NCBI GenBank assembly: GCA_945874145.1
Contig: CAMCFN010000006.1
Location: forward strand, 16,164-80,163
DNA from: Akkermansia muciniphila
GTDB lineage: Bacteria; Verrucomicrobiota; Verrucomicrobiia; Limisphaerales; SXTU01
Direction: 5' to 3'
Length of the DNA: 64,000 nt
Shown: positions 3,582 to 51,135 of the stretch, piece after piece
How positions within the stretch are numbered: position 1 is the first letter of the stretch
Layout: each line of letters opens with the position of its first letter
The notes under the pieces: model-generated
What the model saw: only the letters and a program-made list of their open reading frames with translations
Databases searched by the model: none
What the model was told of the DNA's origin: nothing
Translations under genes and position numbers: made by a program

Positions 3582-4939
3582 AGCTCCTTCACCACAAACT
3601 TTGCGAACTCCGCGTGCAGATGCGGCGGGATGCGGGCCTTGAAGCGCGCCAACTCACCGCTGTAATCGCGCTCCACTATCTGCGCCACCTCATGAAGCTT
3701 GGCGATGACAGCGGACTGCTCGTGCGGGATCGCGAGTTCCACGAAGTTACGGACCGGGCGGAGGGCGGTGCCCAGCTCGGCCATCAGTGCGTCGAAGCCT
3801 TCGCCGGTGCGGGCGGAAACGGCGACTGCGCGAGGATGGGCCATCCGCCAGCGCGCGACCAAATCCGGCTCGGCCTGGTCGATCTTGTTGAGCACCAGCA
3901 TGGTGGGCTTTTCAGCCGCGTGAATTTCCTCCAGCACGGCGTTCACCGCCCGGATTTGGTCCTCGGCCTGCGGGTGCGTGCAGTCCACGACGTGCAGCAA
4001 CAGGTCCGCCTCGACGACTTCCTCCAGCGTGGCCTTGAATGCCTCGACGAGCCGCGTGGGCAGCTTGCGGATGAAGCCCACGGTGTCGGAGAGCAGGACG
4101 TTTTGATTCGTCGGCAGGCGGAGGCGGCGCGTGGTAGGGTCGAGCGTGGCGAAGAGTTTGTCCTCGGCCAACACGGATGCCCCGGTGAGCTTGTTGAAGA
4201 GGGTGGATTTGCCGGCGTTCGTGTAGCCGACGATGGACGCGAGCGGCCATTGATTGCGCTGACGGCCTGCGCGTTGCGTAGCCCGCTGGCGGCGGACGAT
4301 CTCCAGTTCATCGTCGAGCTTCTCGATGCGCTCGGAGATTTTCCGCCGGTCGGCTTCCAACTGGGATTCGCCCTCGCCGCCAATCGCCCCCATGCCGCCG
4401 CGCTGACGCGACAGATGCGTCCAGTAGCGGGTAAGGCGCGGGAGCAGATACTGAAGCTGAGCGAGTTCGACCTGCAACTTGCCCTCTCGCGTGCGGGCGC
4501 GCTGCGCGAAGATGTCGAGGATTAGGGCGGTGCGGTCGAGGACGGTGCCTTCGAAAACCTTCTCCAGATTACGCGTCTGCGCGGGGGAAAGCTCGTCGTC
4601 GAAGATGATCGTGTCCACGTTGAGCTCGTGGCAATGCTTGGCAAATTCCTGTGCCTTGCCGGTGCCGATGAAGGTGGCGGGGTGGATGGATTCGAGCTTC
4701 TGCGTGCCTTCCCCGACAATGTTCGAACCGGCGGTGCGCGCGAGTTCGGCCAGCTCGGTCATCGAGTCCGTGGTCTCCCAGGGCGTGCCAGACTTGAGTT
4801 CCACGCCGACGAGGAAGACGCGTTGCGCCTTGTGATTAGGATCTGCGATGAGTGCTTTCAAATCAGGACTGGAGGCAGCGTAGCAGACGGCCGGGCGCGG
4901 CGGAAGCGTTACGTGCCGGCAGGCTGGCAGCCGGCGCAC
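3578..4939 (-). CDS. hflX: GTPase HflX
   Basis: HflX N-domain (LDRTALILDIFAQRARTREGKLQVELAQLQYLLPRL) and G-domain (GYTNAGKSTLFNKLT...DTVGFI...NKID). The track start is a GTG at 4937-4939. The true start is uncertain because there is no early ATG. Confidence 0.9.
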   Translation of the reverse strand: MRRLPACRHVTLPPRPAVCYAASSPDLKALIADPNHKAQRVFLVGVELKSGTPWETTDSMTELAELARTAGSNIVGEGTQKLESIHPATFIGTGKAQEFAKHCHELNVDTIIFDDELSPAQTRNLEKVFEGTVLDRTALILDIFAQRARTREGKLQVELAQLQYLLPRLTRYWTHLSRQRGGMGAIGGEGESQLEADRRKISERIEKLDDELEIVRRQRATQRAGRQRNQWPLASIVGYTNAGKSTLFNKLTGASVLAEDKLFATLDPTTRRLRLPTNQNVLLSDTVGFIRKLPTRLVEAFKATLEEVVEADLLLHVVDCTHPQAEDQIRAVNAVLEEIHAAEKPTMLVLNKIDQAEPDLVARWRMAHPRAVAVSARTGEGFDALMAELGTALRPVRNFVELAIPHEQSAVIAKLHEVAQIVERDYSGELARFKARIPPHLHAEFAKFVVKEL

Positions 4940-41435: not shown

Positions 41436-42104
41436 ATGATCGAACTAATCCAGTTTCCTTGGAGTCCGTTTTGCATCGTGCAACGACGCATCCTGGAGTT
41501 CTCAGGCACGCGTTTCAAAACCACGAACATTCCGAACACGGATCGTTCGCTCGTGTGGAAACTCACCCGCGGGCAATCCTACCAAGTGCCGGTTCTCCGC
41601 GATGGCCGGCACGTGGTGTTTGAGGCGGCGGAAGATTCACAGGCGATTGCCGAACATCTCGATCAGAAGCTGGAGCTGGGGCTTTTCCCAGCCCAATGGC
41701 GCGGCTTGCAGACGGTTCTCTGGCGGCATATCGAGGATGAAATCGAAGGCCTCGGCTTCAAGCTCAACGACATTTATTTCGAGGAGTTCATCCCCGCCAA
41801 GGAACGGTTGGCCTTCGTGCGGCACAAGGAACGGAAGTTCGGGCGCGGCTGCCTGGCGCACTGGCGAGCCGGACAAGCCGAGCTGCTCCAGCAGTTGGCG
41901 GCGAGCCTCGGCCCCTACGAGCAGATGCTTCTGAACCGGTCCTTCCTGTTGGATGAGCGCCCGCGTTTTGTGGACTTCGACCTCTACGGGGTGCTGGGAA
42001 ATTTCATGGCGTCCGGCCACTACGAATTTCCCGCTGCCCACGCGGAGATGCGCAAATGGTATTCCCGCATGACCACGGTGCGGGCCGGTGACTTTTCTAG
42101 CTGA
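41436..42104 (+). CDS. glutathione S-transferase-like protein
   Basis: Thioredoxin-like N-domain (IELIQFPWSPFCIVQRRILE...QVPVLRDG) and a helical C-domain. Family-level call only. Confidence 0.6.
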   Translation: MIELIQFPWSPFCIVQRRILEFSGTRFKTTNIPNTDRSLVWKLTRGQSYQVPVLRDGRHVVFEAAEDSQAIAEHLDQKLELGLFPAQWRGLQTVLWRHIEDEIEGLGFKLNDIYFEEFIPAKERLAFVRHKERKFGRGCLAHWRAGQAELLQQLAASLGPYEQMLLNRSFLLDERPRFVDFDLYGVLGNFMASGHYEFPAAHAEMRKWYSRMTTVRAGDFSS

Positions 42105-42192
42105 TGCTGCCCTCCACTTTCGCCGCCACCCGCCCGATTCCGGCAGCGCCACCGGTTGAAGGTGTGGTGGCCCAACGCTTTGTTACAACCCT

Positions 42193-43500
42193 GTGAAAAA
42201 CTACATCCTCGACACCAACGTCCTCCTCCACGACCCCAACTCGCTCCTTAATTTCAAGGAGAACCAAGTCCTCCTGCCGATTGAAGTCGTGGAGGAAATC
42301 GACCGATTCAAACGCGACCCCAGCGAGCTGGGCCAGAACGCACGCACCGTCTCCCGCATGCTGGACAGCCTGCGCGGCACCGGGCGTTTGAGCGAAGGCG
42401 TCGTGCTCTCGAACGGCGGCCATCTGCGCATCTTGTTGCAAGAAGGAAAGCATGACCAGGCCGTCGTCCACAGCAGCGTGCAGAATGTGGACAACCGAAT
42501 CCTCGCGCAGGCCCTGCTGGTGAAGCAGGCCAGTCCCGAGCGCGCTACGGTGCTGGTCAGCAAGGACATCAACCTCCGCATCAAGGCCGACGCGCACGGC
42601 CTCGCCGCCGAGGACTATGAAACCGACCGCGTGCGCCTACAGGATTTGTATTCGGGCAAGGTGGACCTACCGGTGACGCCCGAGCAGGTGGCGCAGTTCC
42701 GCACGCACGGAGAACTGGCCTTGCCGACCGACCGCCAGTATTTCCCCAATGAGTATTGCACTTTGGTGGAGGCGAACCCCAAGCGCACCATCCTCGCCAA
42801 AGTGGATCCCACCGGCAAGAAACTGGTGCCGCTCATCGACACGCGGGAAGGCGTCTGGGGCATCAAACCTCGCAACCGCGAGCAGCACTTCGCCCTCGAC
42901 GCGCTGCTGGACGACCGCATCAAACTCGTCACGCTGATGGGCAAGGCCGGCACGGGCAAGACGCTGATGGCCATGGCGGCGGGCTTGCAGCGCACCGTGG
43001 TGGACCGTGAGTTCCGTCGGCTCGTGGTCGCCCGACCGACCATCTCGATGGGCAAGGAGCTGGGTTTCCTGCCGGGTTCGCTAGAGGAAAAACTCGGTCC
43101 GTGGATGCAGCCAATCCACGACGCTTTGGAGTTGCTCAGCGACCTCAACATGGGCAACGAGCACCGCCGCAGCAGCGACCTACTCCGCTCCGGCACCATC
43201 GTCGTCGAAGCCCTCAGCTACATCCGCGGGCGCAGCATCACCAACCAGTTCCTGATCATTGACGAAGCGCAGAACCTCACGCCGCTGGAGGTGAAGACCA
43301 TCATCACCCGGGTGGGCAACGGCACGAAGATCATCCTCGCCGGTGACCCCTACCAGATCGACAATCCCTACGTGGATAGCTCGTCCAACGGCTTCAACTA
43401 TATCGTGAGCAAGTTCCGGGATCATGCCATCGCGGCGCACGCCGAGCTTCAGCGCGGCGAACGCTCGGAACTCGCGGAACTGGCGGCCAATATCCTGTGA
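42193..43500 (+). CDS. PhoH-like ATPase with N-terminal PIN domain (PhoH2/YlaK type)
   Basis: PIN: YILDTNVLLHDP...VLLPIEVVEEID. PhoH: LMGKAGTGKTLMA...IIDEAQNLTP...KIILAGDPYQID. GTG start at 42193. Confidence 0.9.
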   Translation: MKNYILDTNVLLHDPNSLLNFKENQVLLPIEVVEEIDRFKRDPSELGQNARTVSRMLDSLRGTGRLSEGVVLSNGGHLRILLQEGKHDQAVVHSSVQNVDNRILAQALLVKQASPERATVLVSKDINLRIKADAHGLAAEDYETDRVRLQDLYSGKVDLPVTPEQVAQFRTHGELALPTDRQYFPNEYCTLVEANPKRTILAKVDPTGKKLVPLIDTREGVWGIKPRNREQHFALDALLDDRIKLVTLMGKAGTGKTLMAMAAGLQRTVVDREFRRLVVARPTISMGKELGFLPGSLEEKLGPWMQPIHDALELLSDLNMGNEHRRSSDLLRSGTIVVEALSYIRGRSITNQFLIIDEAQNLTPLEVKTIITRVGNGTKIILAGDPYQIDNPYVDSSSNGFNYIVSKFRDHAIAAHAELQRGERSELAELAANIL

Positions 43501-43750
43501 ACGGCCCAATTGACGCTCCCACCAAGCCCCTCAAGCAACGGCCGTTGCCGGCAATTCCTCGGCGGTCAAGGGTTGCCGGGAAGAGGAGTTGTGACCTCCT
43601 TTTTGCGCCGCCAAACATCGCTCAATATTTTTGTGGCGCAAAAAGTCGCCTTTGCTACATTCGCGCACTCTTTTGCGGGCGGGCGGATTCCGCAGCGTTG
43701 GTGGGCGGTGAACCCCGCGCAATGTAGTCGGACCCGCACAGCAGGCATTT

Positions 43751-44377
43751 GTGACCAAAACGAACATGACAAAGTCGAAACCGGCGGCTCCGAGAAAGCC
43801 GACCAAGCCCACCGGCAAGGCCGTTGGGTCGGCCACCCTTGCGGCCATCCTAGGCAAAGCATCGTCCCAGAAGCAGCCACAGACCATGGTGTGGACCCCG
43901 AGTGGAAAGATGAAAATCAAGCCGGAGTGGCAGGGCTACTACAACACTTTGATTTCCCTGCGCGAGCGGTTACAGCTCCAGATGAGCGGGTTGGCGAAGG
44001 AATCCGCCACCCAGATGGAAAGCTACAGCCTGCACATGGGTGATTCAGGCACGGACAACTTCGACCGGGACTTCGCCTTGAGCCTGCTGTCTTCCGATCA
44101 GGATGCCATCTACGAGATTGAGGAAGCCCTCAAGCGCATCGAGAAGGACACCTTCGGCGTTTGCGAACTGACCTCCAAGCCGATCCCCAAAGCCCGGCTT
44201 GAGGCCATTCCGTGGACCCGGTTCACCTTGGAAGCCCAAGCCCAGCTCGAACGCGAAGGCGCTCTCCGTCAGAAGCGTTTGGGAGCCCTCGGCACCATGG
44301 AAGCCACCAGCACAGCAGAAATTGACGACAGCGATGTCGAGGAATCCGACGAGAAGCCCGCAAAGGAAAAGGAATAA
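43751..44377 (+). CDS. DksA/TraR-family protein with degenerate (C-x2-T ... T-x2-A) zinc finger
   Basis: GDSGTDNFDRDFALSLLSSDQDAIYEIEEALKRIEKDTFGVCELTSKPIPKARLEAIPWTRFTLEAQ aligns to the DksA/TraR C-terminal half, but three of four Cys are replaced. Basic ~60-aa N-extension. Start is GTG 43751 or ATG 43766. Confidence 0.75.
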   Translation: MTKTNMTKSKPAAPRKPTKPTGKAVGSATLAAILGKASSQKQPQTMVWTPSGKMKIKPEWQGYYNTLISLRERLQLQMSGLAKESATQMESYSLHMGDSGTDNFDRDFALSLLSSDQDAIYEIEEALKRIEKDTFGVCELTSKPIPKARLEAIPWTRFTLEAQAQLEREGALRQKRLGALGTMEATSTAEIDDSDVEESDEKPAKEKE

Positions 44378-44384
44378 GTAATTT

Positions 44385-44552
44385 ATGGCCCGTGAAATTG
44401 TAACCATCGAATGCACCGAAGCGCGTAAGGAAGGCAAATCCCCTTCCCGCTATCAAACCTCGCGCAACAAGAAGCTCCAGCAGGAAAAGGTGGAGAAAAA
44501 GAAATACAACCCCGCCCTCCGCCGCCACACTGTGCACCGCGAAATCAAATAA
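44385..44552 (+). CDS. rpmG: 50S ribosomal protein L33 (Cys-less, non-zinc-ribbon form)
   Basis: Below the ORF-track size cutoff; translated by hand: [55 protein letters not shown]. The L33 pattern (Y.T.KNK......K.E.KKY.P..R.H..H.E.K) is present. Only one Cys. Confidence 0.85.
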
Positions 44553-44558
44553 CCATCT

Positions 44559-44810
44559 ATGCCCCGCAAGACCCACACCGACAAGAAAGACGCCAAAGGC
44601 CGCACCACCGAGCGCCGAGCGCCCCGCCCGAAGCCGAAAATCGACTTCACCGTGGACGCCTTGGACTACAAGAACGTCAACCTGCTCAAGCAGTTCATCA
44701 CCGACAACGGTCGCATCCTGCCGCGCAAATACACCAATCTGCCGGCGCATTATCAGCGCCGCATGACCACCGCCATCAAGCGGGCGCGTCAGATGCTGCT
44801 GATGAAGTAG
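44559..44810 (+). CDS. rpsR: 30S ribosomal protein S18
   Basis: IDYKNVNLLKQFITDNGRILPRKYTNLPAHYQRRMTTAIKRARQMLLM is the canonical S18 core. Confidence 0.93.
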   Translation: MPRKTHTDKKDAKGRTTERRAPRPKPKIDFTVDALDYKNVNLLKQFITDNGRILPRKYTNLPAHYQRRMTTAIKRARQMLLMK

Positions 44811-44826
44811 CCCCACCGATCTATCC

Positions 44827-44864
44827 GCCCGCCCGCCCTGAAGCCGGGCGGGCTTTTTCTTTTC
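44827..44864 (+). terminator. rho-independent terminator after rpsR
   Basis: GCCCGCCCG (44827-35) - ccctgaagc - CGGGCGGGC (44845-53), followed by TTTTTCTTTT. Confidence 0.75.
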
Positions 44865-44870
44865 CTGGTC

Positions 44871-44885
44871 TGCAAATCGTTTGCA
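44871..44885. promoter_or_regulatory. perfect 6-3-6 palindrome TGCAAAtcgTTTGCA upstream of znuA; candidate Fur/Zur-family operator overlapping a putative -35
   Basis: Read directly. TTGCAC (44881-86) - 17 nt - TATTGC (44904-09) could be a sigma70-like promoter ending 7 nt before the znuA ATG at 44917. Function is inferred only. Confidence 0.35.
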
Positions 44886-44916
44886 CGAAGGCTCTCAGCG
44901 CGCTATTGCTCTGCAC

Positions 44917-45876
44917 ATGAACTTGCTCCCGCACTGGCCTTGGCAGCCGCCCAGCCACCGCTTGCTCATTCTCTTGGTGGCCGCTTGGGGCATTTTTTCC
45001 ACGCCACTCTCTTCGGCTGAACCTGCCCCCAAGCTAAAGGTTTTGACCAGTTTTCTGCCGATGTATTGCCTGACCGCGCAAGTCGCCGGCGACCTAGCTG
45101 AGGTCGAAAATCTCCTCCCCGCCAATGTAGGTCCGCACGACTACCAATTTGCCCCGCGCGATGTCCGCAAGCTCAGCAGTGCCCAAATCTTCGTAGTCAA
45201 CGGCCTGGGCATCGAAGACTGGCTGGCCAAAGCCTTGAAAGCAGCCAAAGGAACCAAGCCCATGACCGTGGTGGAAGCCACCGCTGGCCTGACCAAAGCC
45301 GACCTCATCACCTCGGTGCCCCACATCCACCTGCCCGGCGAACGCGGTCATGACCACGGCACCGGCCCCAACCCGCACACCTGGCTCGATCCTCGGCTGG
45401 CGGCTCATGCGGTCACCAACATCCTTGTCGCCTTGCAAAAGGCTGACCAAAAAAATGCCGCCGCCTATGCCATGAACGCCGCGCAAGCCGTCGCCCGTCT
45501 CCACCAGCTCGACGAAGAGATCGGCCTTGCCTTGGGCCCTTACCACGGCAGCCGCATCGTCACCTACCATCACGCCTTTCCCTACTTCACGCGCCGCTAC
45601 GGCCTTGCCTTGATCGGAGTCATCGAGGAAGTCCCCAACGTGGAACCTTCGCCCAAATATCTGGCTGCCCTGCTCAAAGTCATTCGCGAGAAAGAAGTGA
45701 AGGCCATTTTCACCGAGCCCCAATTCTCCGCCAAGCTCGCCCAGCGCATCTCCCGCGACACCAAAGTCCCCGTCGCCGAACTCGACACCCTCGAAACCGG
45801 CCCGCTCAAACCCACCGCCTACGAGGAAGGCCTGCGGCGGAACCTGAACATGCTTCTGAAGCATTTGGGAAAGTAA
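44917..45876 (+). CDS. znuA: zinc ABC transporter substrate-binding protein
   Basis: Cluster-9 SBP pattern (KVLTSFLPMYCLT...GPHDYQF.P.D...A.IFVVNG...). His-rich loop HIHLPGERGHDHGTGPNPHTWLDP, typical of ZnuA. Start trimmed to the ATG at 44917. Confidence 0.85.
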   Translation: MNLLPHWPWQPPSHRLLILLVAAWGIFSTPLSSAEPAPKLKVLTSFLPMYCLTAQVAGDLAEVENLLPANVGPHDYQFAPRDVRKLSSAQIFVVNGLGIEDWLAKALKAAKGTKPMTVVEATAGLTKADLITSVPHIHLPGERGHDHGTGPNPHTWLDPRLAAHAVTNILVALQKADQKNAAAYAMNAAQAVARLHQLDEEIGLALGPYHGSRIVTYHHAFPYFTRRYGLALIGVIEEVPNVEPSPKYLAALLKVIREKEVKAIFTEPQFSAKLAQRISRDTKVPVAELDTLETGPLKPTAYEEGLRRNLNMLLKHLGK

Positions 45877-45877
45877 C

Positions 45878-46678
45878 GTGAACGAACGACCAATGAACCT
45901 CGGGCATCCAAGTCGTTCGCCTCTCCCAACTTTTCGCCAAGATCTGAAAGCCCGTCATTCGTCAGCCTGGAGTGAAGCCCCAGGTTTTCAGCCAACCAAC
46001 GACACAAGCCCTACAGGGGCAAAACCTCCCTCCCGCCACCTCCACGCATTCACGATGGTTGAGCTGTGCGTAATACTCAGCCTGCTGGGGATTCTCGCCC
46101 TTGGGTTCGTGGCCAGGCAGCAAGAAGCAAAGGCTAAATCGGGCCGCGTCAAATGCGCAGGCAACCACAAGCACGTCGCGCTCGCGCACAGGGTGTTCGG
46201 AAACGACCACGGAGACCGTTTCACCATGAGCCTCTCCACGAATAAGGGTGGCACGCTGGAGCTGGTCGGCACTGGCAGCGTGATCAGCCACTACCTGAAC
46301 ATGACGAATGAACTCGGGGCACCTCAGATCCTGATATGTCCCGACGACCGAACTCGCACCATGCGAAGGGACTTTCTACCTCTACTCAGCAACACCAACG
46401 TGAGCTTCACCGTCGGCTTGGATTCGGATGAGACGCTGCCAAATTCGTTTCTGGCCAGCGATAACCACATGACTTCGTCCCTGCCGCGCGTGCGGGGCAT
46501 TGCCGGGCTGTCCACCACCGATCTCGCAGGCTGGTCGCAGAGGTTGCACGGTGGCGGGGGAAACTTCGCCTTGGCCGATGGCAGCATTCAGATGTCCACC
46601 AGCGCTACACTTTGGCAGCAGGTCACCCAGGCGCTCGCCTCCACTCGCACCAACAGCCACCGTCTCGAATTTCCATGA
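45878..46678 (+). CDS. prepilin-type N-terminal domain protein with DUF1559-like (H-X9-DG) C-terminus
   Basis: AFTMVELCVILSLLGILALG resembles the G/A-FTLIEL class-III signal. C-terminal RLHGGGGNFALADGSIQ is the H-x9-DG motif of PVC pseudopilins. The start is ambiguous (GTG 45878, ATG 45893, or the internal ATG at MVEL). Confidence 0.65.
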   Translation: MNERPMNLGHPSRSPLPTFRQDLKARHSSAWSEAPGFQPTNDTSPTGAKPPSRHLHAFTMVELCVILSLLGILALGFVARQQEAKAKSGRVKCAGNHKHVALAHRVFGNDHGDRFTMSLSTNKGGTLELVGTGSVISHYLNMTNELGAPQILICPDDRTRTMRRDFLPLLSNTNVSFTVGLDSDETLPNSFLASDNHMTSSLPRVRGIAGLSTTDLAGWSQRLHGGGGNFALADGSIQMSTSATLWQQVTQALASTRTNSHRLEFP

Positions 46679-46717
46679 GCTGCCGGACTGAGTCATCGCC
46701 GCTGCGTAGCACGCGCC

Positions 46718-46875
46718 CTTTGGAGTGCGGTGACTCGTCACCGCTTTCTGCAGGCGACTTGTCGCCGTCTTGCGCAAGGACGCGCCTGAACCTCGACGAG
46801 CCGCTTCCGCGCGGCTCTGCTTGGCGGACAAGTCCGCCCAGCGCCCAAAGCGGTGACAAGTCACCGCACTCCACA
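46718..46875. repeat. ~158-bp nested imperfect palindrome (REP/MITE-like)
   Basis: Outer arms TGGAGTGCGGTGACTCGTCACCGCTTT (46721-47) and AAAGCGGTGACAAGTCACCGCACTCCA (46847-73) are reverse complements with 1 mismatch. Inner hairpins GGCGACttGTCGCC (46753-66) and GGCGGACaaGTCCGCC (46823-38). Confidence 0.8.
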
Positions 46876-46898
46876 ACGGAGCCTTCTTCCTTCGCGCA

Positions 46899-46982
46899 GC
46901 GAGGGGAGAAGGTGGCCGCAGGCCGGATAAGGGGTGCGGCCACTTGCACAGTCGCGGCCAACCCACGACCCTCTCCCCTTGC
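46899..46982. repeat. second structured element: GCGAGGGGAGAAGG ... CCCTCTCCCCTTGC with inner TGGCCGCA/TGCGGCCA stem
   Basis: Read directly. Arms at 46899-46912 and 46969-46982, inner stem at 46913-20 / 46935-42. Confidence 0.65.
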
Positions 46983-47030
46983 TCCGCAAAGGAAAAGGGA
47001 GTCGAAGCGCGTGCGGCTTTCCACCCGCTT

Positions 47031-47066
47031 CTCCCCCATCTCCCATCTCCCATTCCCCATTCCCTC
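47031..47066. repeat. degenerate heptamer tract CTCCCCCAT CTCCCAT CTCCCAT TCCCCAT TCCCTCG abutting the znuC GTG
   Basis: Read directly. Confidence 0.7.
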
Positions 47067-47876
47067 GTGAGCGTTACGCACACCACCTGCAGCCACTCCG
47101 CCGCCGACATTGCCGTCTCCGTGCGCGACCTGCGCGTCACGCTCGGCGGGCAGGCCATCTTGCGCGGCGTGAACATGCACCTGCATCGCGGGCAGCTCGT
47201 CGCGCTCATCGGCCCGAACGGCTCGGGCAAGACCACGCTGCTGCGCGCCATGGTCGGCCTGCAAAAGCCCGACTCCGGCGAGGTCCGCCTCTTCGGCGAG
47301 AGCAACTTGAAGAAGGCCCTGCCGCGCGTCGGCTACGTCCCGCAACGCCTCGCGCTGGACCGCAGCTTCATCCTCAGCGTCCGCGAATTCCTCGCCCTGC
47401 GCCTGCGCGAGACGCAGCATTGGTTCTGGCACCGCCACCGCGACACCGACGACCGCCTCCACGCCGCGATGGCCGAGTTGGGCGCCGAGTCGCTGCTGGA
47501 CCGCCCCATCGCCGCGCTTTCCGGCGGCCAGCTCCAGCGCGTGCTCATCGTCTTCGCTCTGCTGAAACAACCCGACCTCCTGCTCCTCGACGAACCCACC
47601 GCCGGCGTGGACTCGCCCGGCGAACAGGACTTCTACGAAACCATCGCCGAGGTTCACCGCAAGCATAAGCTCACTGTCGTCCTCGTCTCCCACGACCTCT
47701 CGATGGTCTATCGCCACGCCTCGTGGGTCTATGCGCTCAACGGCGTCGTCTGCTGCGAAGGCTCGCCCGAGCACGTGATGAACGCCGACTCGCTCAAGGA
47801 AGCCTACGGCCTGAACGTCACGCCGTATCACCACCACAACCATTCACACGGACCCGGTGGAGGGCACGCGCAATGA
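47067..47876 (+). CDS. znuC: zinc ABC transporter ATP-binding protein
   Basis: Walker A GPNGSGKTTLLR, signature LSGGQLQRV, Walker B LLLLDEP. The track ORF start (46944) runs through the repeats. GTG at 47067 chosen, giving ...IAVSVRDLRVTLGG about 16 aa in. The start is uncertain. Confidence 0.85.
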   Translation: MSVTHTTCSHSAADIAVSVRDLRVTLGGQAILRGVNMHLHRGQLVALIGPNGSGKTTLLRAMVGLQKPDSGEVRLFGESNLKKALPRVGYVPQRLALDRSFILSVREFLALRLRETQHWFWHRHRDTDDRLHAAMAELGAESLLDRPIAALSGGQLQRVLIVFALLKQPDLLLLDEPTAGVDSPGEQDFYETIAEVHRKHKLTVVLVSHDLSMVYRHASWVYALNGVVCCEGSPEHVMNADSLKEAYGLNVTPYHHHNHSHGPGGGHAQ

Positions 47877-48709
47877 GCATCTTCTCCGACATCGAACCCT
47901 TCATGCTCCGCGCCTTCGCGGTGGCCGTTGTCATGGGACCGTTGTGCGCGTTGCTCGGCGTGTTCGTCACCGCGCGACGGATGGCCTTCTTCAGCGACAC
48001 CATCGCGCACGGCGCGTTGGCGGGCATCGGCTTGGGCTTCCTGCTCGGCTTCGAAGACCCCACCTGGCCGATGGTCCTCTTCAGCCTGCTCGTGGCGGCG
48101 GCGATTCTCTGGCTCAAGGAGCACACTGACCTGCTCACCGACACCATCATGGCGCTGCTGCTCTCCGGCTCGGTGGCGTTCGGCATCATCGTGCTGAGCA
48201 TGCTGAAGAACAAACGCGGCGAACTGCACCGCTACCTCTTCGGCGACATCCTCAGCGTCGGCCCGGACGACGTATGGCTCGCGGTGGTGCTGTGCGCGGC
48301 CATCGGCGCGTGGCTCTTCGCGAAGCTGAGTCCGCTGGCGCTGCTCACGGCGAGCGAAGACCTCGCCCACGTCTGCGGCGTGCGCACGCGCTGGTTGAAC
48401 TACGCCTTCGTGCTCGTGCTGACCGTGGTCATCTCCTTGAGCATCCGGCTGCTGGGCATCATCCTCGTCACCTCGCTCGTGGTCATTCCACCCGCCGCTG
48501 CGCGCAACCTCGCGCGCAACCTCCGGCAGCAGCTCATCCTCAGCCTCATCATCGGCCTGTTCGGCGGCGCGGTCGGCACGGTGGCGAGCTACCACTGGGA
48601 CATCCCGTGCGGCCCGGCCATCGTGATGGCGTGCATTGCGGTGTTCATCGGCTCCCTGCTGGCAAGCAAACTCTGGCTGAACCGGCCGGTGAAGGCGAAA
48701 GCGGTTTGA
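47873..48709 (+). CDS. znuB: zinc ABC transporter permease
   Basis: ABC-3 permease pattern (FMLRAF...FFSDTIAHGALAGIGLG...). ATG at 47873 overlaps the znuC stop (ATGA). Confidence 0.9.
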   Translation: MSIFSDIEPFMLRAFAVAVVMGPLCALLGVFVTARRMAFFSDTIAHGALAGIGLGFLLGFEDPTWPMVLFSLLVAAAILWLKEHTDLLTDTIMALLLSGSVAFGIIVLSMLKNKRGELHRYLFGDILSVGPDDVWLAVVLCAAIGAWLFAKLSPLALLTASEDLAHVCGVRTRWLNYAFVLVLTVVISLSIRLLGIILVTSLVVIPPAAARNLARNLRQQLILSLIIGLFGGAVGTVASYHWDIPCGPAIVMACIAVFIGSLLASKLWLNRPVKAKAV

Positions 48710-48814
48710 CGCAAGGGCGCAGAGACGCGAGGAGAACATGACTTCAAACCAACCAAGCGCTATGACTGCCACCAGTTTTCTTCTTTGCGTGCCCGCGTCT
48801 TTGCGCCTGTGCGT
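48709..48814. repeat. REP-like inverted repeat ACGCAAGGGCGCAGAGACGCGAGG ... CTTTGCGTGCCCGCGTCTTTGCGCCTGTGCGT
   Basis: Arms at 48709-48732 and 48783-48814 are imperfect reverse complements. It lies between the znuB stop and the zur start. Confidence 0.7.
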
Positions 48815-48829
48815 TAAATCTTCTCGCCC

Positions 48830-49342
48830 ATGAAGAAGGCCGCCCACGCGCACGCCCACGCCGCCGCGCCGTTGTCTGACCTGACTTCCCGGCTGCGGGA
48901 CAAGTCACAGCGCGTCACCGGGCCGCGTCAAGCCATCCTCGCCCTGCTGCGCGAGCACCGGCACCCGATGACGAACAAGGAAATCCACGCCGCGCTCGCA
49001 AAAGGCGACTGCGACCTCGCGACCATCTATCGCTCCATGCACTTGCTGGAGGAGATGGGAATGGTGAAGCGCTTCGACTTCGGCGATGGCGTGGCGCGGT
49101 TCGAGTTGGTCACAGGCGACGAGCACGCGCATCACCATCACCTCGTCTGCACCTGCTGTGCGGACATCGTGGAGATTGACGACTGCTTCGCGGACGAGCT
49201 GGAGAAGCGCGTCGCCGCTGCGCACGGCTTCAAGAGCGTCACACACAGGCTGGAATTCTTCGGCGTCTGTCCCGATTGCCAGCGGGAAGGTCATTCACAT
49301 GACGAGACGAAACGAGCGCGGCGGAAGCCTTGCGGTTGCTGA
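48830..49342 (+). CDS. zur: Fur-family metalloregulator, Zur-like by context
   Basis: Winged-helix (RVTGPRQAILALLREHRHPMTNKEIHAAL...ATIYRSMHLLEEMGMV). HHHHLVCTCC...CPDC metal sites. Zinc specificity is inferred from znuABC linkage only. Confidence 0.75.
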   Translation: MKKAAHAHAHAAAPLSDLTSRLRDKSQRVTGPRQAILALLREHRHPMTNKEIHAALAKGDCDLATIYRSMHLLEEMGMVKRFDFGDGVARFELVTGDEHAHHHHLVCTCCADIVEIDDCFADELEKRVAAAHGFKSVTHRLEFFGVCPDCQREGHSHDETKRARRKPCGC

Positions 49343-49431
49343 GTTTGGAGCCGCAGATGGAGCCCCGACCTGAACGAGCGCCCACCTAGTTTACGGCCTC
49401 TCTGCGACTGAACCGCCGCCAAAAACCCCAA

Positions 49432-51135
49432 CTATTGCAGCGCGAACGGTAGGCGAGACAACCGCGTGTTCAATTCCAGCAGCCGGTTGCGCAGCATGTC
49501 CGTCGTGGTTTTCTCATCGAGGGTGTAGCCCGGCAGCGTCTCGAAACTCTTGATCACGGCGCAGTAGTCTGAGTTGGCCATCACGCCGAGGAACTCGCCG
49601 GTCTTGCTCAGGACGATGTCGCCCGTTGACGGCGAGAACTCACCCTGAAACACGCGGCTGATGATCCGGTTCTTCATCTTCACGTAATCGGGAGTGCGGG
49701 CGTCGAGCTTGAACTCCACTTCGCCGTAGTGCTTTCCACCGCGATTCACCAGCACGGCTTCCGTGAACTTGAAGGGATTCCTGGCCACCGGGTAAAGTTT
49801 CACGCCCATCGCCATGGCCTGCTGTGCGTTCACCGGGATGACAGCAAGCCGAGGATCGGCGGTGATGAAGGTCAGCGCACCACTGCCGATCACCTGCGAC
49901 CCCCTGGACACCCGCGCACCCACATGCTCCATGCCCTGTGGGTTGATGAGTGAAAACGGGGTGTCGCCCACATGGACAATGGCATAGACGCCCCGCCCAT
50001 CATGCACGAGGACGCTCTTTGCTTCCCTGAGGCGCGCACCGGAACCAAGGAGCACCGCTTGATGCGCCGAAATCGCCACATCCACGCGGTTGCTGAGAAA
50101 CTCGCTGAACATGAGGTTCATGTTGATGGGCGTGTTCTCGCGAATCTCCTTGGCGAGTTCGCCGGATTTCGCCGCAAGCTGGCCGACGCCGTCCGTGAGC
50201 CGGGTGGTCTGTGTCTGTAGCAGATCCTTTTCCTGCCGCACCAGGGCCACTTCCTTCTTCAAGTCGGTCAGGTTCTCGCGGAGCAAGTTGCGCTCGGACT
50301 CGGCGACCTTGGCGGCGGTTGATGCCTGGGCGGCCTGGGCGGCGGCGGCTTGCCGTTGTTTCTCCAAGTCGGCCAGCGCGGCCTGCTGCTTCTCCAACTC
50401 GGCCTGCTTCGCGGCAAGAGCGGTTTGCATCTGCTTCTCCAACTGCTCGCGGATCAAGTCGCGCTCGGCCTGGGCAACGCGGACGGCGGTGGCCAAGCCG
50501 ACTGCCTGCTGGGCGGAAGCATTCTGCTGCTTGCTCAATTCATTGAGTGCGGTCTGTTGCTTCTGGATCTCGGCCTGCTTGGTGGCGACAGCCTGCTGCA
50601 TCTCCTGAGCAAGCCGGGCTTTCTCGCTCTCCGCCCTAGCCTTGTCCGCCTCCAACCGGACCTTCTCGGCCTCAACATTCTTGATGGCGGCAGTGAGCGC
50701 GTCCTGCTGCTGCTTGGCGGCCGCAGTAAGAGCTTCCTGTTGCTGCTTGGCCTTTTGCTTCACATCCACCGCCTCCTGGGCCACGGCGGCGTAGCGTTGG
50801 GAAAGCACCTGGGCGGCGGTCTGCGACTGCTTGAGCGTCTGCTCCAACTGGCTGCGCTGGGCCTGAATCTGGGCCAGGGTCTGCTCGCGGGTCTTCACGT
50901 CCGACTCGGCAAATTGCAGCCGCTGCTGGAGTTGATCCCGCGCGGCCTTCTCCTGTTCGAGCGCCACCTTCATCATGTCCACGAGATCCTGGTTCTTGGG
51001 ACGGGCGGCGTTGGCCTGCACCTCCGGCACCGGAGCGCTGGTGTTGCGCACGGGCTCCGCCTCATCCCAGCGGGTCAAGGCCAGCAGGTTCAGCAGGAGG
51101 AAGTCGCAAATGATGAGAAGCAACGTCTTGTTCAT
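49432..51135 (-). CDS. single-pass membrane protein: TM helix with buried Asp, long coiled coil, beta-rich C-domain
   Basis: MNKTLLLIICDFLLLNLLAL, then ~300 aa Q/A/E/K heptad-like sequence with an internal duplication, then a C-terminal domain ending GDIVLSKTGEFLGVMAN. The ATG overlaps the upstream stop (ATGA 51132-51135). Confidence 0.7.
   Translation of the reverse strand: MNKTLLLIICDFLLLNLLALTRWDEAEPVRNTSAPVPEVQANAARPKNQDLVDMMKVALEQEKAARDQLQQRLQFAESDVKTREQTLAQIQAQRSQLEQTLKQSQTAAQVLSQRYAAVAQEAVDVKQKAKQQQEALTAAAKQQQDALTAAIKNVEAEKVRLEADKARAESEKARLAQEMQQAVATKQAEIQKQQTALNELSKQQNASAQQAVGLATAVRVAQAERDLIREQLEKQMQTALAAKQAELEKQQAALADLEKQRQAAAAQAAQASTAAKVAESERNLLRENLTDLKKEVALVRQEKDLLQTQTTRLTDGVGQLAAKSGELAKEIRENTPINMNLMFSEFLSNRVDVAISAHQAVLLGSGARLREAKSVLVHDGRGVYAIVHVGDTPFSLINPQGMEHVGARVSRGSQVIGSGALTFITADPRLAVIPVNAQQAMAMGVKLYPVARNPFKFTEAVLVNRGGKHYGEVEFKLDARTPDYVKMKNRIISRVFQGEFSPSTGDIVLSKTGEFLGVMANSDYCAVIKSFETLPGYTLDEKTTTDMLRNRLLELNTRLSRLPFALQ

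Follow-up and report, generated by a model that had tools for sequence, protein, structure and literature searches.

Do cysteine-depleted versions of the stringent-response factor DksA and of ribosomal proteins L33 and S18, encoded next to a zinc importer, form a stand-by set that zinc starvation switches on? The question is raised by a run of same-strand genes in a 64,000-nucleotide (nt) stretch of DNA (the window) from contig CAMCFN010000006.1 of assembly GCA_945874145.1, labelled Akkermansia muciniphila and placed in the order Limisphaerales of the Verrucomicrobiota, in which dksA, rpmG and rpsR are followed by znuA, a pilin-like gene, znuC, znuB and a gene for a Fur-family regulator. Zur regulons that include rpmG2 and rpsR2 in actinobacteria, or a zinc-free dksA in Pseudomonas and Cupriavidus, are documented (PMC6103462), and an earlier note on this DNA, written from the sequence alone, had proposed that the locus may be a single zinc-starvation module. 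Our analysis indicates that it very probably consists of two independent units lying head to tail, a housekeeping dksA–rpmG–rpsR operon and, beside it, a separately controlled Zur–znu operon.

The open reading frame (ORF) listing and profile searches recovered every feature that the earlier note had described, each where that note had placed it. Gene identities rest on Pfam and NCBIfam profile searches together with this listing, and they agree with those originally given. The window belongs to a 4.58-Mb assembly in 157 contigs that is 82% complete. We compared it with 80 related loci (S18 was read in 77), scoring downstream content in the 56 that have at least 6 kb of 3′ DNA. Within the order, 16 families of Limisphaerales were sampled for the neighbourhood and 17 genomes for presence of the operon. 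Copy number was examined in five related genomes, of which three are single-chromosome assemblies, and the class was represented by 121 genomes, each at least 90% complete except the window's own.

The dksA operon carries the only copies of its three genes

The first unit comprises dksA (43751–44377, + strand, with an alternative ATG start at 43766), rpmG (44385–44552, +) and rpsR (44559–44810, +), separated by gaps of 6–7 nt. The 55-residue L33 scores 53 bits with PF00471 and 66.8 bits with NF001860 (cut-off 50), and the 83-residue S18 scores 81 bits with PF01084 and 61.9 bits, above the cut-off, with TIGR00165. The same three genes stand together in 80/80 related loci and in 17/17 genomes of the order. 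As the earlier note had observed, L33 holds a single Cys and lacks the CxxC...CxxC ribbon, which reads CTEC...CRWC in those class relatives that have it. S18 has no Cys, and its Cys-containing (C+) relatives in the class read CKLC...C. This Cys-free S18 recurs in 76/77 related loci. The non-zinc character that had been attributed to DksA, L33 and S18 is thus upheld by their Cys patterns, and we refer to such ribosomal proteins as C− forms.

Searches with tblastn and Pfam found a single gene each for L33, S18 and a DksA-family protein in the window genome, all at this locus. The second, Cys-containing copies of dksA, rpmG and rpsR for which a search had been suggested were not found by either method in this 82%-complete genome. 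Since the assembly is incomplete, related genomes and class genomes were checked too. In all five related genomes, a single L33 gene and a single S18 gene score above cut-off, each at the locus linked to dksA, and three of the five have a single DksA. In the class, one copy was counted for L33 in 116 of the 117 genomes with a match, for S18 in 119/119 and for this DksA in 116/119. The relatives with single-chromosome assemblies argue against a second copy having been missed. Neither a Cys4 DksA nor a C+ L33 occurs among the 80 loci of the order, where the DksA finger is Cys-depleted in 80/80 and L33 has one Cys in 80/80. The earlier proposal that these are zinc-free paralogues does not hold, as they are the only genomic copies and the Cys loss is lineage-wide.

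The classical sites of the two ribosomal genes are empty. On contig C113 (5676–7122) an otherwise intact rpsF–ssb–rplI cluster lacks rpsR, with 46 nt at its usual place, and on contig C2 (9088–11915) an otherwise intact tuf–tRNA–secE–nusG–rplK cluster lacks rpmG, so that each classical operon misses exactly the gene now found in the dksA operon. Because the genes are single copies in the genome, in its relatives and in the class, and because the classical sites are empty, dksA, rpmG and rpsR are, as judged from sequence, essential housekeeping genes present as sole copies. A C− form as the sole copy is the end state in many lineages, L33 of E. coli being one example.

Ribosomal zinc has not been wholly eliminated in the lineage, since L31 is still C+ (CxC...CxxC); it is single in the window genome, where tblastn found no C− paralogue. 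L36, S14 and L32 gave no tblastn match there, with short queries and an 82%-complete assembly; the queries for these other zinc-ribbon proteins were E. coli and B. subtilis sequences. L28 gene matches lie on two contigs (C116:9017–9235 and C81:10–117, the latter at a contig end) and are identical over their shared stretch; they are probably an assembly duplicate or a strain variant and not paralogues.

A minority of Limisphaerales genomes carry a second DksA-family gene: L158 (genome G020), L159 (G009), L088 (G002) and L091 (G005). The copies L158 and L159 are 37–48% identical to the window protein and are C1-type, not Cys4, and therefore are not zinc-binding partners of the operon copy.

The window protein is a C1-type, zinc-independent DksA

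The DksA finger reads GVCELTS...RFTLEAQ in a protein with one Cys, which confirms the Cys-depleted C-x2-T...T-x2-A finger first noticed in the sequence. Its residues C138-E-L-T141...T159-L-E-A162 fit the motif CxxS/T-x17-C/S/TxxA by which the C1 class of zinc-independent DksA is defined (PMC9126822), and the pattern C..T/S...T..A/S is present in 80/80 related loci. PF01258 matches residues 134–168 with 28.1 bits against a cut-off of 24.9, and the NCBIfam equivalog models dksA and yteA also match, with scores below their cut-offs. The closest sequence in the PDB is Chlamydia trachomatis DksA (6PTG; E = 6.8e-17), a structure without metal (PMC9126822), followed by DksA2 (4IJJ).

The AlphaFold2 model of the window protein (mean predicted local distance difference test score 64, core 75–89) has helices at residues 58–92, 102–131 and 160–179, and shows the two-helix coiled coil, globular finger and C-terminal helix of the DksA family. 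All of the top eight Foldseek matches in the PDB are DksA, DksA2 or C. trachomatis DksA, with a probability of at least 0.97. At the coiled-coil tip, D102-N-F-D105-R aligns with D71-P-V-D74-R of E. coli, and D102, D105, R106 and D107 are invariant across 50 homologues. Asp stands where E. coli has A76, so that the tip motif is DxxDxD and not DxxDxA. We regard the protein as a bona fide DksA of the C1 type, zinc-free by its motif, which would bind the secondary channel of RNA polymerase as the only DksA of the cell.

Like other verrucomicrobial DksA proteins, the window protein also has two tails that are absent from E. coli, Pseudomonas and Chlamydia DksA. The N-terminus (residues 1–57, encoded at 43751–43920) is a long, basic, low-confidence extension with a high content of Lys, Pro and Ala, and the C-terminal tail is acidic. 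In Akkermansia-sized genomes (loci L098–L107) the N-terminal extension reaches up to about 100 residues with AKKPA-like repeats, which resemble histone-H1-like DNA-binding tails.

The two units have separate control regions

Upstream of dksA lies a block (43623–43686, +) composed of an A/T-rich tract, TTGTGG...TACATT and a GC-rich stretch. It is almost invariant in 12 close relatives, and its flanks are unalignable. This pattern of conservation suggests that the block is the promoter and the start of the leader of the dksA operon. An inverted repeat at 43600–43644 was considered as a conserved regulatory hairpin and rejected, as its right arm alone is conserved and lies in the promoter-like block. 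The sequence TGCAA-N5-TTGCA is found within 350 nt upstream of dksA in 0/72 loci, with a one-mismatch match in 1/72, which confirms the reported absence of a znuA-like palindrome at this place.

The operon ends in an intrinsic terminator (+), a stem-loop at 44831–44853 with eight G-C pairs and a 7-nt loop, followed by TTTTTCTTTT, the T-tract running to 44863. Seven nucleotides past this tract stands the perfect palindrome TGCAAAtcgTTTGCA (44871–44885, no strand; TGCAAA-TCG-TTTGCA). The genome scan that had been proposed for TGCAAA-N3-TTTGCA returned a single exact match in 4.58 Mb, the one at znuA, against 0.056 expected. When one mismatch was allowed, the scan gave one such match against 2.5 expected, and no wider Zur regulon can be defined from it.

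Among related loci, the palindrome lies 3′ of rpsR in 47 of the 50 that have zur or znu genes downstream (exactly in 41, with a single mismatch in 6) and in 2 of the 26 that have none, typically about 50–65 nt after the rpsR stop codon. Since this distribution tracks the downstream zur and zinc-uptake genes, we consider TGCAAA-N3-TTTGCA a candidate Zur operator of the znuA–pilin–znuCB–zur genes, a role first suggested in the earlier note and now backed by the uniqueness of the element as well as by its distribution. To our knowledge, the element is not among the known consensus Zur boxes, and no Zur regulon has been described for Limisphaerales. Its 6-3-6 architecture at the znuA promoter resembles the 7-1-7 Zur boxes, which have been reviewed along with other Fur-family operators (PMC6103462). 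An Rfam scan of positions 42000–50000 gave no family at the gathering threshold.

The zinc-uptake operon and its regulator

The second unit begins with znuA (+), whose likely ATG start gives a gene at 44917–45876 (the listed ORF starts at TTG 44881). Further along the same strand lie znuC, for the ABC ATPase (likely from GTG, 47067–47876, within a listed ORF of 46944–47876), znuB, for the ABC-3 permease (47873–48709), which overlaps znuC by ATGA, and the regulator gene (48830–49342). The locus thus unites the three components of a cluster A-I importer, with scores of 237 bits (PF01297), 111 bits (ATPase, PF00005) and 212 bits (permease, PF00950). The more specific NCBIfam models stay below their cut-offs, namely AztC, MntC and ZnuA on the binding protein and, as top matches, ZnuC and AztA on the ATPase. 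The ZnuA-family protein carries a His-rich loop, HIHLPGERGHDHGTGPNPH, and a YHHAF motif, which together with the genomic context suggest that the importer is specific for zinc.

The regulator scores 96 bits with PF01475. Its NCBIfam scores are all below cut-off (Fur 110 bits, PerR 73, Zur 29), and its PDB matches include Fur (88 bits), PerR (82), Streptomyces coelicolor Zur (71) and Mycobacterium tuberculosis Zur (64). With models below cut-off and similar closeness to Fur, PerR and Zur, the sequence by itself does not single out Zur. Its translation contains the motifs C-T-C-C and C-P-D-C of a structural Cys4 site. In the related loci, a Fur-family gene follows znuACB or a ZIP-type permease in 35/56 cases and is the sole zinc-related gene behind rpsR in two others, and it co-occurs with the palindrome. 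This context points to Zur. Elsewhere the genome encodes one more ZnuA-family binding protein (C8:12104–12841; 31% identity) and one more Fur-family regulator (C52:19743–20165; 26% identity), which probably represent the organism's Mn/Fe importer and its Fur/PerR.

Between znuA and znuC lies a prepilin-type/H-X9-DG-CTERM gene (45878–46678, +; TIGR04294, 20.1 bits, cut-off 19) whose start lies 2 nt past the znuA stop codon. Behind it is a non-coding spacer (46679–47066, no strand) of 388 nt, made of nested hairpin repeats (inverted repeats I1–I4) of the GGTGAC-NN-GTCACC type; about ten such hairpins occur genome-wide, three of them in this spacer. A homologue of the prepilin-type gene occupies the same position in only 2/80 relatives (L011 and L015), with a weak identity of 31–37%. 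In most relatives znuC follows znuA directly, and several (L013, L014 and L019) have other inserts of 0.5–1 kb at the junction. Given these varied inserts, the znuA–znuC junction is an insertion hot spot. On the other side of the locus, a PIN–PhoH gene of the PhoH2 type (42193–43500) lies directly 5′ of the dksA operon, a position kept only in the closest relatives (L006–L019).

Loss of zinc sites goes with formation of the operon across the class

Among 116 class genomes, dksA–rpmG–rpsR stand together in 49, dksA–rpsR in 21 and dksA–rpmG in 3, and the three genes are apart in 43. In families f19, f27 and f45, DksA is Cys4 (for example CESC...CVRC), L33 is Cys4 and encoded in tuf–rpmG–secE–nusG, and S18 has three Cys and is encoded in rpsF–ssb–rpsR–rplI. 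In family f26 the DksA finger varies by genome between CCCC, CCTC and CSTC; in the two f26 genomes read for the ribosomal genes, L33 is Cys4 (its canonical site confirmed in one) and S18 is C− and displaced. All other families have a Cys-depleted DksA (CSTC, CCTC, CTSG, CTTA and others) and C− forms of L33 and S18 encoded away from the canonical sites, and in these families the displaced ribosomal genes are mostly joined to dksA. The class-wide correlation was counted without phylogenetic correction, so that it may reflect few independent events.

Among the loci sequenced, C+ genes for L33 and S18 occur only in the canonical operon and C− genes only outside it. The C− copy therefore appears to have arisen at a new locus, after which the C+ original was lost, and for L33 and S18 such a duplicate-then-lose history is the most likely course of events to be read from these arrangements. 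Such histories are a long-standing proposal for C+/C− ribosomal proteins. The graded f26 series of DksA fits loss of Cys in place at least as well.

A C− L33 gene in genome G075 of family f27 (L154, contig C101, around position 4050) was considered as an intermediate with both forms and was not used, as contamination is possible. The contig is 8.6 kb long and has no dksA nearby, and the genome, a 91%-complete metagenome-assembled genome, also holds the canonical C+ rpmG.

Conservation of the neighbourhood and the readings it allows

The juxtaposition with zinc uptake that had been pointed out in the earlier note is real and beyond chance. Immediately after rpsR, 39/56 related loci carry zinc-uptake genes and/or zur, as znuA to zur (28), as a ZIP-type permease with zur (7), as zur alone (2) or as an uptake gene without zur (2), and nothing zinc-related follows in 17. 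Half of the families sampled (8/16) have zur at this position. The regulator gene and the operator are the constant partners, and the uptake genes between them are exchangeable (znuACB, a ZIP permease or none).

A tree built from DksA, L33 and S18, which is rough and weakly resolved with many unresolved forks, places the zur adjacency mostly in one supported subclade (8 of its 11 members) and in family f17, with the basal families lacking it. In ten loci from other orders that carry the triad, no zur or znuA lies within 7 kb. Because triads outside the order lack these neighbours and the basal families lack the adjacency, it most likely arose inside Limisphaerales, later than the operon.

These data bear on a first alternative, in which a Zur-repressed dksA2–rpmG2–rpsR2 set formed beside zur and became constitutive once the originals had been lost, leaving the zur neighbourhood as a relic. 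The strict division between canonical C+ and displaced C− genes would fit such a course, the pairing of rpmG with rpsR recalls the Zur-regulated operons of actinobacteria, and the constancy of zur and its operator beside varying uptake genes is what a relic might look like. Against this stand the ten triad loci without zur or znuA, the apparently derived position of the adjacency in the tree and the CCCC, CCTC and CSTC fingers of f26, which occur without linkage of dksA to ribosomal genes and suit Cys loss in place at least equally. We down-weighted the relic reading of the adjacency after considering the loci outside the order and the tree, and regard it as unlikely.

A second alternative, to which we give slightly less credence still, is that a leaky terminator feeds basal transcription of the znu and zur genes, that zinc-loaded Zur acts as a roadblock, and that selection keeps the two units together for this reason. 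In its favour, every gene is encoded on one strand, the operator follows closely on the T-tract and its distance from the rpsR stop codon is conserved. The terminator, however, is of textbook strength, with its eight G-C pairs and long T-run, and about 30% of the related loci have no zinc gene after rpsR.

That the locus is one inducible zinc-starvation module, in which Zur-controlled paralogues of DksA, L33 and S18 are switched on together with ZnuABC and spare the zinc of the originals, is very improbable: its parts do lie side by side in a conserved arrangement and the Zur regulons of PMC6103462 offer a precedent, but there are no zinc-binding originals in a genome and class in which all three genes are single-copy, no operator precedes dksA, a terminator separates rpsR from the operator, and L33 and S18, as essential sole copies, could not be repressed under zinc sufficiency. 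The corresponding proposal of the earlier note was abandoned on these grounds.

Two independent, head-to-tail units remain the reading that we prefer, and several observations weigh against it. The window genome is only 82% complete, so a second copy could lie on the missing DNA. A scan with the sigma-70 consensus found no promoter in either intergenic region. The regulator is inseparable from Fur or PerR by sequence. Finally, about 70% of the related loci retain zur or zinc-uptake genes beside the operon, which plain inherited synteny may explain, or for which there may be a functional reason.

Model and significance

Under the two-unit reading, dksA–rpmG–rpsR would be expressed constitutively from its own promoter-like block and closed by the strong terminator, and znuA–(pilin-like gene)–znuC–znuB–zur would be repressed by zinc-loaded Zur bound to the promoter-overlapping TGCAAA-N3-TTTGCA. 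As the two units would be separately controlled, induction by zinc starvation is expected for the second unit only and not for the first. The zinc-free state of the trio is a fixed trait of the lineage, zinc-binding versions surviving in only a few other families of the class. Copy numbers, Cys patterns, the order of genes, the terminator and the spread of the palindrome are observations, whereas the identity of the promoter, zinc specificity, constitutive expression of the first unit, control of the second by Zur and the displacement scenario are what we infer. The term 'zinc-sparing', which had been applied to the locus, keeps its evolutionary sense, in that the trio replaces zinc-binding versions still kept in other families, and loses its sense of an inducible module; the trio appears to be a lasting zinc-free substitute and not one that is induced on demand.

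What is new here is a class-wide dksA–rpmG–rpsR operon whose formation goes with the loss of zinc sites in all three of its products. In most Verrucomicrobiae, including those with Akkermansia-sized genomes, this previously undescribed, conserved operon links DksA with two ribosomal proteins, and the class forms a natural series in which zinc-binding and zinc-free versions of three proteins can be compared across sister families. For annotation, it follows that Cys-less DksA, L33 and S18 genes near znuABC–zur should not be taken for Zur-regulated alternatives unless copy number has been checked. A second result is the candidate Zur operator TGCAAA-N3-TTTGCA for Limisphaerales; the novelty of both is modest.

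We tentatively suggest that the correlated loss of zinc sites in three unrelated proteins, together with their gathering in one operon, represents a 'frozen' zinc-sparing response, an idea that is possible and still doubtful. If it were correct, what other phyla keep as an inducible module would have become the permanent sole version in Verrucomicrobiae, a stringent-response factor would be physically tied to the synthesis of ribosomal proteins, and f26, with its CCCC, CCTC and CSTC DksA fingers and its C+ L33 beside a displaced C− S18, would mark intermediate stages.

Comparison with known systems

The DksA of Chlamydia trachomatis (CT407, 6PTG), from the same Planctomycetes–Verrucomicrobia–Chlamydiae superphylum, shares with the window protein the D-x-x-D-R tip motif and a lone finger Cys, the finger reading C..S...T..S there and C..T...T..A here. 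The window protein differs by its Lys/Pro-rich N-terminal extension of about 60 residues and its acidic C-terminal tail, and its gene stands in one operon with rpmG and rpsR; the neighbour of the chlamydial gene is presumably lspA. Chlamydial DksA, too, is zinc-free and the sole DksA of its genome, and it failed to complement E. coli dksA (PMC9126822).

DksA2 of Pseudomonas aeruginosa (PA5536, 4IJJ) shares with the window protein the motif class of its Cys-depleted finger (CxxT-x17-CxxA) and the fold, being the top Foldseek match to the window model (TM 0.61 on the target), and its gene, as in the window, lies near zinc-homeostasis genes. DksA2 is a second copy beside the Cys4 protein DksA1 and is made only under zinc limitation (PMC9213440, PMC6103462), whereas the window dksA has neither a Cys4 partner nor an operator upstream.

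The second unit resembles the znuABC–zur loci of E. coli, Bacillus and actinobacteria in its cluster A-I importer, the His-rich loop of ZnuA, its Fur-family regulator and a short, A/T-rich promoter palindrome comparable to the 7-1-7 boxes (PMC6103462). It differs from them in that zur is the last, 3′-most gene of the uptake operon, that one operator is detectable genome-wide and that the operon is broken by the pilin-like gene and the hairpin-repeat spacer.

Finally, the Zur-regulated alternative operon of mycobacteria and streptomycetes (rpmB2–rpmG2–rpsN2–rpsR2) likewise places genes for C− L33 and C− S18 side by side, both proteins lacking the zinc ribbon that class relatives of the window still have. 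In actinobacteria such C− genes are additional copies under Zur repression (PMC6103462), whereas those of the window are sole copies, joined to dksA instead of rpmB and rpsN, and would lie outside Zur control.

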